Shown: in pieces, positions 2,339-15,111 of the stretch | Numbering within the stretch: the stretch's first letter is position 1 | Layout of the letters: every line of letters begins with the position of its first letter | Assembly (NCBI RefSeq): GCF_003334305.1 | Contig: NZ_QOWS01000003.1 | Source: Escherichia coli | GTDB lineage: Bacteria > Pseudomonadota > Gammaproteobacteria > Enterobacterales > Enterobacteriaceae | Reading direction: 5' to 3' (one strand) | DNA: 64,000 nucleotides | Position numbers and translations under genes: made by a program | The notes under the pieces: generated by a model | What the model saw: the letters and a program-made list of their open reading frames with translations, nothing else | What the model was told of the DNA's origin: nothing | Databases searched by the model: none

Positions 2339-3181
2339 TTAACAATAATGCGCGATGCGATCGACGCTAATATCCAGCGTGCTGTTAATATCTTTCTGCC
2401 ACCAGTAAGGCGAGAATATTTCCAGTTCAATAGCACCATTAAATCCGGCGTTTTCAACCAGCCGACGAATTGACGGAATATTGATGACGCCATCTCCCGG
2501 CATACCACGGTCATTGACCAGATCAGTGGTCGGCACTAACCAGTCGGAAACATGAAACGCGAGGATGCGTTTTCCGGCACGCAGGATCTGACTGGCGAGA
2601 TCCGGGTCCCACCAAACATGGTAGACATCTACCGCCACGCCGAGGCCAAATTCGCCATCGGGATCGAGTTCATCACACCAGTCCAGCGCCTGACGTAACG
2701 TGCACAGACAGGAACGATCGGCTGCGGTCATCGGGTGCAGCGGCTCCAGTGCAATTGGCACGCCGACATCTTTCGAATGTGGCAGCAACTGGCGAATCCC
2801 TTGTTTCACTTGTTCCCGCGCTTCATATAGATCTTTAGTGCCCGTTGGCAGACCGCCAACCACCTGCATATAACAGGCGGCATTCAGTACAGCGGCGTCG
2901 TCCAGCGCCCGGCGGTTATCGTCAATCGCCAGTTTGCGCTCCGCCAGCGTCGGTGCGGTGTAGTAGGTGCTACGGCACAAACCGGAAACGTTCATCTTAC
3001 TGGCGGCAAGCTGACGGGCGATCTGCTGGAGATCTTCGCCCTGCAACTCCCTGCGCCAGGGGGCAATTGCGCCAATACCGCGTGCAGCGCAGGCATCAAT
3101 AATGGCGGGTAGCGGCGTTTTATAGCCCAGTGTTGCGGTATTGATACTGAATAAATCCGGGCGTTGTAACAGATCTCTCAT
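2339..3181 (-). CDS. sugar-phosphate isomerase/epimerase-like TIM-barrel protein (xylose-isomerase-like fold), 280 aa
   Basis: ORF-track protein resembles the AP-endonuclease-2 / xylose-isomerase-like TIM-barrel family; tightly packed in the same operon (3-nt gap to hydratase). Confidence 0.55.
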   Translation of the reverse strand: MRDLLQRPDLFSINTATLGYKTPLPAIIDACAARGIGAIAPWRRELQGEDLQQIARQLAASKMNVSGLCRSTYYTAPTLAERKLAIDDNRRALDDAAVLNAACYMQVVGGLPTGTKDLYEAREQVKQGIRQLLPHSKDVGVPIALEPLHPMTAADRSCLCTLRQALDWCDELDPDGEFGLGVAVDVYHVWWDPDLASQILRAGKRILAFHVSDWLVPTTDLVNDRGMPGDGVINIPSIRRLVENAGFNGAIELEIFSPYWWQKDINSTLDISVDRIAHYC

Positions 3182-3190
3182 GATTCAGCC

Positions 3191-3982
3191 TCAGAAGCGC
3201 GGCATACTTAAGCCGCCGTCGATGGCGACCGCCTGACCACAGGTGTAAATCAGTTTACCTTCCGCCATCGCGCGGACGGTGGAAGCAATATCAGCCGGAT
3301 AACCCCAACGTCCCCACGGCACCAGACCTTTGGCAATCAGTTCGTCGTAATAAGCCGTTGCCGGAATAGTCATATCAGTTTTGATGAGACCTGGGCGCAC
3401 TTCATAAACGCCAATTTGTTCATTACAAAGGCGAGCAGCAAATAGACGAGCAGCGGCAGAAACGGCGGTTTTGGCAATGGTGTATTCGCCGCGATTCATC
3501 GCCAGCATGATGGCGTTGATGGAACTGACGAAAATAATCGAGCGGTGCGGCAGTTCCGCTTCCGGTTTCGGCTGTGCCAGTAAGCGCTTACTGAATGCCT
3601 GAGCAAGGAAGAACGGCGCGCGGGTGTTAATGGCAATGTTTTGATCGAAGCTGTCTGGTTCGAGGTCGAGGAGGTCACCGCGTTTTTTCACTGAAATCCC
3701 GGCGTTATTGAGCAGGCAGTCCAGACGCCCCCACTGGTTTTGCGCCGCGTCGAGCATCTCTTCATGCAAGGAGAGATCGCCGACATCGGCAGGGAAGCAA
3801 ATGACTTCCACGCCTTCTGCCAAACATTCTTGTTGTGTGATATGCAGTTTTTCTACGCTGTCGGCATCGGGACGATCGTTAATCAGCAGGTTAAACCCGC
3901 CACGAGCAAGCTCCAGCGCACAGCCCTTTCCAATACCACGAGCGGCTCCGGTAATCACGGCAACTGGACGAGTGGATTTCAT
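3191..3982 (-). CDS. short-chain dehydrogenase/reductase (SDR), 263 aa
   Basis: N-terminal TGAARGIGKG Rossmann motif and Y-x3-K catalytic motif (YTIAK); first gene of the minus-strand cluster, divergent from the TetR gene. Confidence 0.75.
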   Translation of the reverse strand: MKSTRPVAVITGAARGIGKGCALELARGGFNLLINDRPDADSVEKLHITQQECLAEGVEVICFPADVGDLSLHEEMLDAAQNQWGRLDCLLNNAGISVKKRGDLLDLEPDSFDQNIAINTRAPFFLAQAFSKRLLAQPKPEAELPHRSIIFVSSINAIMLAMNRGEYTIAKTAVSAAARLFAARLCNEQIGVYEVRPGLIKTDMTIPATAYYDELIAKGLVPWGRWGYPADIASTVRAMAEGKLIYTCGQAVAIDGGLSMPRF

Positions 3983-4047
3983 ACAATAACCCTCTTTTGA
4001 ATATCGTTTTCTTTAGTGATGATTAGCTTGCGACTGGCAGGTAAAAA

Positions 4048-4071
4048 GATCAACCATCTAGTTGGTTGATC
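4048..4071. promoter_or_regulatory. 24-bp near-perfect palindrome GATCAACCAtctagTTGGTTGATC in the SDR/TetR divergent intergenic region; candidate TetR operator
   Basis: Read directly in sequence between the divergent SDR start (3982) and the TetR gene. Confidence 0.5.
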
Positions 4072-4191: not shown

Positions 4192-4830
4192 ATGTATCTT
4201 GATACCAGTCACGCACAAAACCTGAAGGAAAAATTGCTGCTATGTGCGGTTAATGAATTTGCCGAATATGGTTATGAAGGGGCCAGAGTAGATAATATTG
4301 TTAAGGCAGCAGGGTGTAGTAAACAGACGGTTTATCACCACTTTGGTAATAAAGAAAATTTGTTTATTGAAGTACTGGAATATACCTGGAACGATATTCG
4401 CGAAAAAGAGAGAGAGCTTGACATTTCAGGGCTTTCTCCGGTTATTGCGATCGAGAAAATAATTGATTTTACTTGGGATTATTACATCAATAATCCGTGG
4501 TTTTTAAAAATTGTCCATAGTGAAAACCAAAGTAAGGGTGTGCATTATAAAAAATCAAAACGCCTCGCTGAAATTAACCATGCACATTTGCAGTCAATGG
4601 CTTCGTTATTAGAAGAAGGGCAGCGACAGAAAACCTTTAAGAAAGATATTGATCCCTTACAAATCAATATTAATATCGCCGCACTGGGTGCATATTATTT
4701 AATAAACCAGTACACACTGGGGATGGTTTATCACATTAGCATGGTTTCACCTGAGGCTTTGGAAGCCAGACGCAGAGTGATCAAAGAGACCATCCTGAGC
4801 TGGCTTTTGGTGAACCCTGCCCGTGGGTAA
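4192..4830 (+). CDS. TetR-family transcriptional regulator (about 212 aa from ATG 4192; ORF track offers upstream ATG 4105)
   Basis: TetR-type N-terminal HTH ([19 protein letters not shown]); GGAAG Shine-Dalgarno upstream of ATG 4192; the 29-aa extension from 4105 looks non-native; divergent from the catabolic cluster. Confidence 0.65.
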
Positions 4831-5460
4831 TCAGCGTGCGCGGATGAAATTACCATCAGGTTGGCGGGTGAACAGTACTTGCTGATTATTTCCCGTATCA
4901 ATGGTTAAGCCGGTAACCACCCCATTCGCATTTTGACGGATTTTAACAATCTGACCATTTTGCAGGTTACTGAGCGGTTTATCCGCGCCCTCGACCTGGG
5001 CCATAGCGTACACATCTGTAGGCGGCAAATTATGGTCGCGGAACAGCTGGGCAAGGGTCTTGCCTGGTTCTACGCGATATGTCCGCCACTGTTGATCGAT
5101 ACCACTTTCCGGTTGGAAAGATTGTGTCTCTGCAACAGGTGGCTCTTCAGGTTGACCTTCCTGAATAGGTTCCGGCGCGACCGGGGCGACCTGATCCGGA
5201 TCGTTTTGCGGCGTCACTAAATGTGCCTGTAGCTGTGCTTCACCTGGGGGGGGTGATTGCATATCTAACTGCGCTTCGCGGGTGACAACAGGCATCTGGC
5301 GTGTTTCATCTCCAGGCAGAAGAATACCGATAATCAGCACTATTGCCGCAATAATGATTCCCCGGCGATGCATCGGCGGCAACGGGTCCATGAGGCGAAA
5401 GTTATCTGGTGCGTGCCAGATTTTCACCAGAGTTGGTTTTAGTTCAAAGCGCCCAGGCAT
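4831..5460 (-). CDS. ytfB: OapA/LysM-domain cell-division protein YtfB
   Basis: Protein MPGRFELKPTLVKIWHAPDNF... recognised as E. coli YtfB; ATG 5458-5460 preceded by GGAGG; ORF-track start 5493 is an upstream alternative. Confidence 0.85.
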   Translation of the reverse strand: MPGRFELKPTLVKIWHAPDNFRLMDPLPPMHRRGIIIAAIVLIIGILLPGDETRQMPVVTREAQLDMQSPPPGEAQLQAHLVTPQNDPDQVAPVAPEPIQEGQPEEPPVAETQSFQPESGIDQQWRTYRVEPGKTLAQLFRDHNLPPTDVYAMAQVEGADKPLSNLQNGQIVKIRQNANGVVTGLTIDTGNNQQVLFTRQPDGNFIRAR

Positions 5461-5678: not shown

Positions 5679-6299
5679 ATGACCACCCCAACTTTTGACA
5701 CCATCGAAGCGCAAGCAAGCTACGGCATTGGTTTGCAGGTAGGGCAACAACTGAGTGAATCTGGCCTGGAAGGGCTGCTGCCAGAAGCACTGGTTGCAGG
5801 TATTGCCGATGCGCTGGAAGGCAAACATCCGGCTGTTCCGGTTGATGTGGTGCATCGCGCGCTGCGTGAAATCCACGAGCGCGCCGATGCCGTTCGTCGT
5901 CAGCGTTTCCAGGCGATGGCTGCTGAAGGTGTGAAATACCTGGAAGAAAACGCCAAAAAAGAAGGTGTGAATAGCACCGAATCTGGCCTGCAATTCCGCG
6001 TGATCAACCAGGGTGAAGGCGCAATTCCGGCACGTACCGACCGCGTTCGTGTTCATTACACCGGTAAACTGATCGACGGCACCGTGTTTGACAGCTCCGT
6101 TGCTCGTGGTGAACCCGCTGAATTTCCGGTTAATGGCGTGATCCCTGGCTGGATTGAAGCACTGACTCTGATGCCGGTAGGTTCTAAATGGGAACTGACT
6201 ATCCCGCAGGAACTGGCATATGGCGAGCGCGGCGCAGGCGCATCCATCCCTCCGTTCAGTACCCTGGTGTTTGAAGTCGAACTGCTGGAAATTCTCTAA
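5679..6299 (+). CDS. fklB: FKBP-type peptidyl-prolyl cis-trans isomerase
   Basis: Protein [20 protein letters not shown]... recognised as FklB (206 aa); ATG 5679 with AAGGAAA Shine-Dalgarno; ORF-track start 5520 is an upstream extension. Confidence 0.9.
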
Positions 6300-13310: not shown

Positions 13311-13499
13311 CAGGGACATCCTTTTATTATCGGGAATACGAAAGAAAAGGGAGAATAAACGTCTTACTTATAGAACAGTGAAGAATGCCACAATTTTACG
13401 CTTTGAAAATGATGACACTATCACAGTTGGCGCATTCATTAACGATAGGGTATAAGTAAAACAATAAGTTAACACCGCTCACAGAGACGAGGTGGAGAA

Positions 13500-14240
13500 A
13501 TGTTAGATCAAGTATGCCAGCTTGCACGGAATGCAGGCGATGCCATTATGCAGGTCTACGACGGGACGAAACCGATGGACGTCGTCAGCAAAGCGGACAA
13601 TTCTCCGGTAACGGCAGCGGATATTGCCGCACACACCGTTATCATGGACGGTTTACGTACGCTGACACCGGATATTCCGGTCCTTTCTGAAGAAGATCCT
13701 CCCGGTTGGGAAGTCCGTCAGCACTGGCAGCGTTACTGGCTGGTAGACCCGCTGGATGGTACTAAAGAGTTTATTAAACGCAATGGCGAATTCACCGTTA
13801 ACATTGCGCTCATTGACCATGGCAAACCGATTTTAGGTGTGGTGTATGCGCCGGTAATGAACGTAATGTACAGCGCGGCAGAAGGCAAGGCCTGGAAAGA
13901 AGAGTGCGGTGTGCGCAAGCAGATTCAGGTCCGCGATGCGCGCCCGCCGCTGGTGGTTATCAGCCGTTCCCATGCAGATGCGGAGCTGAAAGAGTATCTG
14001 CAACAGCTTGGCGAACATCAGACCACGTCCATCGGCTCTTCGCTGAAATTCTGCCTGGTGGCGGAAGGACAGGCGCAGCTGTACCCGCGCTTCGGACCAA
14101 CGAATATTTGGGACACCGCCGCTGGACATGCTGTGGCCGCAGCTGCCGGAGCGCACGTTCACGACTGGCAGGGTAAACCGCTGGATTACACTCCGCGCGA
14201 GTCGTTCCTGAATCCTGGGTTCAGAGTGTCTATTTATTAA
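13500..14240 (+). CDS. cysQ: 3'(2'),5'-bisphosphate nucleotidase
   Basis: 246-aa protein recognised as CysQ (inositol-monophosphatase fold, WLVDPLDGT motif). Confidence 0.95.
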
Positions 14241-14787
14241 TTAATTTATGCAGCAGGTCCATCACTTGCTGCACCTCTTCCTGAGTAAGCGCCCCGTCTT
14301 TGGCCCATTGCACGCGACCGTCTTTATCCAGCACCACTACAGCGGAACTTTTTTCATCCAGCTGCCAGGCACCGCGTGCGACGCCATTGCTATCAACAAT
14401 AAACTGCGACCAGGGATAAAGCTTTTTATTACTCTCCAGACTGCTGCGCACAAACATGCCGGAACCCGGAATTGCGTCGTCGGTGTTAACAATGGTGGTG
14501 GTCTGGTAACGATCGTGCGGTAACTTCGCTGATTTAATCGCTTCAATCAGCGTCGCGTTTTTCTCTTTTGCAGAGGTGCGACCAGCAATATGTTGCAGTA
14601 CTCGCACTTTTCCCACTAACTGCGCGCTGTTCCAGGTTTTGTAGCTAAACTGATCTTTATCAAGCACCAACTCGCCACGATCGGTGATGCCAATCGGCGG
14701 CACTCGCTGACCGGTTTCGAACTGATGTGCGGAAGCCATCATCGGCAACAGCAGGCAGGTGAGTGCCAGAATCTTGCGTAGGGTCAT
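14230..14787 (-). CDS. ytfJ: periplasmic YtfJ-family protein
   Basis: 185-aa protein with signal peptide recognised as YtfJ; its 3' end overlaps the cysQ 3' end by 11 nt. Confidence 0.85.
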
Positions 14788-15111
14788 GGTGTTTCCTTCT
14801 TATGATATGCAGGTGATCCGACCACTTGGGTCTGAGTTTTAATCATATGTGCTATTTATCGAATTTCCCGCAAGTGTGATGCCAGTTTGCGGTCAAGCGC
14901 ACAAATCATATGAAAAATGAATGCTTATACTGAAGACCGCGCTTCGGTAAAAAGATAATTCTGAATAATTGTAACCTTTAGGTAAAAAAAGTTATACGCG
15001 GTGGAAACATTGCCCGGATAGTCTATAGTCACTAAGCATTAAAATTTGCGCCTCATAATAGTTGGGCCGATTGTGGCACCGCACAGGCGTAATACTCAGC
15101 AGGAGATAACA

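Follow-up and report, generated by a model that had tools for sequence, protein, structure and literature searches.

The DNA analysed here, a 64-kb stretch from Escherichia coli that we call the window, carries two genes that run towards each other and share their last codons:

13500-14240, plus strand: cysQ, 3'(2'),5'-bisphosphate nucleotidase, 246 aa, with the stop TAA at 14238-14240 (open reading frame and NF008182 match)
14230-14787, minus strand: ytfJ, YtfJ family protein, 185 aa, with the stop TAG at 14230-14232 (open reading frame and TIGR01626 match)
14230-14240, no strand: convergent (tail-to-tail) overlap of cysQ and ytfJ, 11 nt, CTATTTATTAA (sequence and list of open reading frames)

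The shared nucleotides encode part of a serine codon, I, Y and the stop of cysQ and, on the other strand, part of an isoleucine codon, N, K and the stop of ytfJ. The 3' end of cysQ reads GTG TCT ATT TAT TAA (VSIY-stop) and that of ytfJ reads CAT AAA TTA ATT AAT AAA TAG (HKLINK-stop), the latter stop appearing as cta on the plus strand at 14230-14232. A preliminary description of this DNA had claimed an 11-nt convergent overlap, and both the sequence and the list of open reading frames confirm it. The RefSeq/PGAP annotation agrees: in locus L083, whose genome matches the window at 100% identity across the 1.5-kb query, cysQ occupies 1601-2341 and ytfJ 2331-2888, which is the same 11-nt overlap. 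An Rfam search retrieved no known RNA at the junction, its sole real match being a full-length one to the sRNA family ES239 (RF02756) at 13311-13433 on the plus strand (155.9 bits, gathering score 62), in the intergenic region that separates cpdB from cysQ, immediately upstream of the latter.

Both genes are genuine, full-length and protein-coding. CysQ scores 526 bits against NF008182 (cutoff 379) over positions 1-246 of 246, and YtfJ scores 306.5 bits against TIGR01626 (cutoff 151) over positions 1-183 of 184; TIGR01626 is the model tested here, while PF09695 comes from the K-12 annotation of YtfJ. The chance that the overlap is an artefact of calling open reading frames, one of the two frames ending sooner or being no gene at all, is virtually nil: we found nothing to support it, the stop codons are set by the sequence itself, both proteins fit curated models from end to end, and the tails of CysQ (GFRVSIY-stop) and YtfJ (LLHKLLxK-stop) are kept in other genera. 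Lying on opposite strands, sharing 3' nucleotides, being real genes and being kept in related taxa, cysQ and ytfJ form a convergent overlapping pair in the ordinary sense of the term.

The arrangement differs in K-12. In MG1655 the order is cysQ (b4214), ytfI (b4215, 312 aa, plus strand) and ytfJ (b4216), with 1,212 nt, ytfI included, from the cysQ stop to the ytfJ stop, so that ytfI does lie between the two genes in that strain, as the preliminary description had stated. Its absence from the window is also borne out, as neither tblastn with YtfI nor blastn with the K-12 islet gave a significant match anywhere in the 64 kb. Pairwise alignment equates window 13400-14236 with 2656-3492 of the K-12 locus (L001), and window 14249-14900 with 4725-5376 of the same locus, which leaves one short interval between the two aligned blocks:

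14237-14248, no strand: empty site of the ytfI islet, 12 nt against 1,232 nt in K-12 (L001 3493-4724) in the pairwise alignment

The K-12 segment contains a cysQ-proximal hairpin, ytfI, and a second hairpin between ytfI and ytfJ. Its presence or absence leaves CysQ with the same C-terminus (VSIY-stop), the only difference between the window and K-12 proteins being I59V. YtfJ is one residue longer here than in K-12 (185 against 184 aa) and differs only in its last few residues, HKLINK-stop against QKLLK-stop. Conservation of the two C-termini thus holds for CysQ, whose tail is the same in both alleles, and for both tails across genera, but the very end of YtfJ is not that of K-12. With its contiguous junction, its lack of islet DNA and a junction sequence common to other E. 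coli without ytfI, the window carries the ytfI-less allele.

This allele is the majority state of the species. Of 5,426 complete E. coli genomes, 3,795 (70%) have a contiguous junction, defined as at least 80% coverage of a 100-nt probe spanning the window junction; the best match reaches at least 99% identity in 2,263 records, a band that may include partial matches. The ytfI segment was found in 1,623 of the 5,426, with at least 80% coverage in 1,605 (about 30%), among them K-12 derivatives, O157:H7 and O145. The few remaining genomes, which show neither state, include rearranged cases such as strain ETEC1738 (NZ_CP122768.1, L082 2501-3794). There, an IS1 element lying 164 nt past cysQ replaces ytfI and the 3' part of ytfJ, which is annotated as a partial pseudogene, and the strain has a third allele of the locus.

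The composition of the K-12 islet is deviant (30-38% GC, against 51-58% in the flanking cysQ and ytfJ) and its distribution is patchy (30% of E. coli), as fits a horizontally acquired islet. It holds no integrase or transposase; apart from ytfI, nothing is annotated between cysQ and ytfJ. For the function of YtfI, searches returned no Pfam match even at E of 10 or less and no NCBIfam match; a PADLOC match to Cas6b was weak (41 residues, E of 8e-4, 17 bits) and we judged it to be due to chance. Within E. coli, ytfI alleles show differences of up to 3.5-6%, which makes this an old polymorphism, and the gain of ytfI by K-12 was not recent. E. coli SCPM-O-B-8794, a separate GTDB species representative, has a divergent ytfI (L005 4056-5285) with 69% amino-acid identity to K-12 YtfI, at the same site, between the same flanking hairpins and next to the same QKLLK-stop tail of YtfJ. 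This allele, with its K-12-type flanks and tail, points to one old insertion event, still segregating in Escherichia. The cysQ/ytfJ arrangement and the ytfI insertion are already known: ytfI has been described as a K-12-specific inserted segment that is bound by H-NS, and that strains SE11 and SE15 lack (Higashi et al., 2016, PLoS Genet, S10 Fig; PMC4720273). We deal with the same locus and the same two states, the window being like SE11 and SE15, and there is no substantive difference from that report (PMC4720273), to which we add the frequencies, the exact breakpoints and, from outgroups, evidence for the empty site as the ancestral state.

That evidence comes from enterobacterial assemblies that are GTDB species representatives, one genome per species. 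With YtfJ as query we obtained 80 loci, a set to which E. fergusonii, E. marmotae, E. ruysiae and Salmonella enterica subsp. enterica do not belong, and for each of them we calculated how far apart the stops of cysQ and ytfJ lie. The two genes overlap tail to tail in 73 of the 80 species loci, by 11 nt (n=40), 7 nt (n=27) or 4 nt (n=6). These 73 include Escherichia whittamii and other Escherichia species, Citrobacter, Salmonella arizonae, Klebsiella, Raoultella, Kosakonia, Enterobacter, Lelliottia, Kluyvera and Pluralibacter, among others. The junction nucleotides are homologous throughout the overlapping outgroup loci, and the 11-nt overlap itself, with homologous nucleotides beginning TCTATTTAYTRA, is found in E. 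whittamii, other Escherichia species, Citrobacter, Salmonella enterica subsp. arizonae, Klebsiella, Raoultella and Kosakonia. The CysQ and YtfJ tails are likewise conserved in the outgroup genera. Since such a large share of the species loci overlap, with homologous nucleotides and tails across genera, the overlap very probably represents the ancestral state of enterobacteria, into which the K-12 segment was inserted. The preliminary description had proposed an indel at this junction relative to K-12. An indel is what the alignment gives, but the window is not the unusual state that had been implied, the overlap being in all likelihood ancestral, and in the majority within E. coli.

The opposite polarity, in which the lineage of the window would have lost ytfI by deletion from a K-12-like ancestor and the overlap would be newly fused and derived, deserves consideration because ytfI is old in Escherichia, as the allele with 69% amino-acid identity attests, and because a gapped alignment paired the window strings TTAATT and AATTTA with the islet ends of K-12. 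Matches of 6 nt in AT-rich sequence are, however, what chance would give, and the low GC of the islet marks it as foreign DNA. Moreover, a random deletion would not restore the overlap exactly, and the same 11-nt overlap with homologous nucleotides exists in genera from which ytfI is wholly absent. On this last ground we rejected an origin of the window junction by deletion from K-12-like sequence, and we consider it very unlikely.

The empty site of E. coli has a peculiarity of its own. At window 14237-14244, the junction forms the palindrome TTAATTAA, which results from four substitutions with respect to E. whittamii (TTGAGCAACTT to TTAATTAATTT). Through them the cysQ stop TGA became TAA and the end of YtfJ went from HKLLNK to HKLINK; together they amount to a local cluster of AT-enriching changes.

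An ancestral overlap, with K-12 as the inserted state, also allows the edges of the islet to be read. The left edge in K-12 lies directly after the cysQ stop, with TCTATTTACTAA before the boundary and ATTCAGATGGCAGAA after it, followed by a 10-bp hairpin; at the right edge, TTATTGCCA precedes the boundary and TTATTTGAGCAACTTTTGCAGCAGG follows it, and the sequence resembles the ancestral TATTT[ATT]GAGCAAC of E. whittamii with one codon fewer. The overlap sequence is therefore in effect present on both sides of the islet, as an imperfect duplication (CTATTTACTAA on the left, TATTTGA on the right) of about 10 AT-rich bases, a length too short to prove a target-site duplication, and by this comparison both genes kept intact ends. 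The history that we propose is that the islet of K-12, O157:H7 and about 30% of E. coli would have landed right after the cysQ stop, leaving CysQ unchanged. It would have cost YtfJ one codon and slightly altered its tail (QKLLK-stop in place of HKL[L/I]NK-stop), and it equips cysQ and ytfJ each with a hairpin of its own downstream. The strain of the window, for its part, either would never have gained this AT-rich islet of about 1.2 kb, or would have regained the ancestral allele by homologous recombination. Some of the lineages without ytfI may descend from ytfI-bearing ancestors and be recombinational revertants.

An overlap of this kind leaves no intergenic space, and each transcript must therefore end inside the other gene. 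Two hairpins lie in the coding sequence close to the junction:

14249-14273, no strand: candidate 3'-end hairpin, 9-bp stem with a 7-nt loop (TGCAGCAGG TCCATCA CTTGCTGCA), inside ytfJ codons 172-180
14208-14224, plus strand: 7-bp hairpin CTGAATC-CTG-GGTTCAG, terminator-like by consensus scan, inside the last cysQ codons

The one at 14208-14224 was all that the consensus scan gave at the junction, no canonical terminator being present in or next to the overlap, and terminator-like sites do not exceed the expectation from shuffled sequence (4 against 2.0 ± 1.4). It sits inside translated cysQ, and other genera do not keep its register, so that it probably has no function. The hairpin at 14249-14273, which the same scan did not report, starts 9 nt past the cysQ stop and folds with -15.8 kcal/mol (z -4.4) on the plus, cysQ-sense strand and with -15.6 kcal/mol (z -3.2) on the minus, ytfJ-sense strand. 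Across 73 distinct enterobacterial sequences, 99.5% of the cells of the stem are paired and six of its nine pairs are invariant. One pair is compensatory, G-C having become A-U in three related Escherichia sequences, and G·U intermediates occur in three further sequences; a claim of RNA structure on covariation alone was rejected, given that it would stand on this single pair in three related sequences. Codon usage adds to the picture. Within the hairpin, ytfJ L178 and L179 are CTG in 0.94 and 0.99 of the sequences, compared with 0.33-0.86 at other conserved Leu codons; Q173 is CAG in 1.00, compared with 0.59-0.85 elsewhere in ytfJ; and V172 is GTG in 0.96, compared with 0.40-0.86 elsewhere in the gene. 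Synonymous sites are thus more fixed in the hairpin than at the same codon types of ytfJ, which suggests selection at the nucleotide level.

From its position and conservation, this hairpin within ytfJ would be the likeliest 3'-end element of the cysQ mRNA, a role that we consider plausible. Of the hallmarks of an intrinsic terminator it has the GC-rich stem-loop and lacks the U-tract, there being none after the stem on either strand (the tail is ACCUCUUCC on the plus strand and AUAAAUUAAUU on the minus strand). It is like a bidirectional intrinsic terminator in being a stable GC-rich hairpin where two convergent transcription units meet; yet it is part of the coding sequence of ytfJ and is not flanked by U or A tracts, and its membership of that class is not supported.

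Does the overlap do anything? The preliminary description had raised possible mutual interference between the 3' ends. A harmful effect is unlikely, because the overlap has been kept over some 20 genera and because a single E. coli reference genome contains 75 convergent overlapping pairs (Huvet and Stumpf, 2014; PMC4161906). Any interference between the 3' ends is evidently tolerated, or useful, across these 20 or so genera, and separation of the genes is equally tolerated in 30% of E. coli. Like other short convergent overlaps (PMC4161906), this one consists of two real opposite-strand genes that share their last codons over a short length kept among related species; its 11 nt exceed the 4 and 7 nt found at the same junction in other genera, and it is otherwise typical. 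One could go further and give the overlap a regulatory role, expression of cysQ and ytfJ being coupled through convergent transcription or through the complementarity of their 3' ends, with the hairpin as a shared bidirectional 3'-end element. The persistence of the overlap across those genera would agree with this, as would a hairpin so close to the cysQ stop, so completely paired and with such unusually fixed synonymous sites, whose intermediates are G·U and not C·A on the cysQ-sense strand. However, the length of the overlap drifts between 11, 7 and 4 nt with changes of phase, about 30% of E. coli do without it, and E. coli, E. albertii, C. youngae and Kluyvera tolerate insertions that push the genes apart. 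Covariation amounts to one event in three related sequences, the U-tract is missing, and short convergent overlaps are common and are usually put down to drift of stop codons (PMC4161906). We therefore regard a regulatory coupling of the two genes as unlikely.

The tolerance of insertions is most apparent in the seven of the 80 loci that have no overlap, where unrelated DNA lies between cysQ and ytfJ. The insertion in L005 is the E. coli-type ytfI mentioned above. In E. albertii (L007 4056-5559) there is an AT-rich open reading frame of 385 aa (33% GC) with pentapeptide-repeat similarity, and in Citrobacter youngae ATCC 29220 (L044 4059-6178) a membrane protein that has a TIGR04222 domain and a tail rich in Cys, Gly and Ser, together with a radical SAM/SPASM enzyme. 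Two Kluyvera species (L058 4056-4959, and L061) have a 350-aa protein that resembles D-Ala-D-Ala carboxypeptidase, and K. intermedia (L067 4056-4126) a mere 71-nt spacer with its own hairpin. Not counting one short spacer, the cysQ/ytfJ junction thus has four or more mutually unrelated cargos, and the C-termini and 3' ends of both genes are intact each time. The C. youngae locus retains a duplication: the 3' end of ytfJ, including the conserved hairpin, is present twice, at about 6131-6178 next to cysQ and at 4020-4058 at the true end of ytfJ. A remnant of the former ytfJ 3' end, about 35 nt long, abuts the cysQ stop, and a second, complete ytfJ 3' end is found past the cargo. By analogy, this resembles integration into the 3' end of a gene by an element that carries a replacement copy of that end.

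Taken together, these observations allow a double proposal, which we put forward tentatively and hold to be rather doubtful: that the hairpin at 14249-14273, maintained over some 20 genera by constraint on synonymous sites, would serve cysQ, and ytfJ as well perhaps, as a 3'-end or terminator element embedded in coding sequence for want of intergenic space, and that the junction would be a preferred landing site for small accessory cassettes in Enterobacteriaceae.

K-12 is not always the ancestral reference. At this locus, the gene that seems to be missing from the window is in all likelihood an accessory insertion of K-12, and the compact overlap is the norm. Annotators should expect the 11-nt overlap of cysQ and ytfJ, and accept it. 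The embedded hairpin and the insertions that preserve the ends of both genes make the junction a possible case study of how transcription may terminate without intergenic space, alongside a tolerance of inserted DNA.
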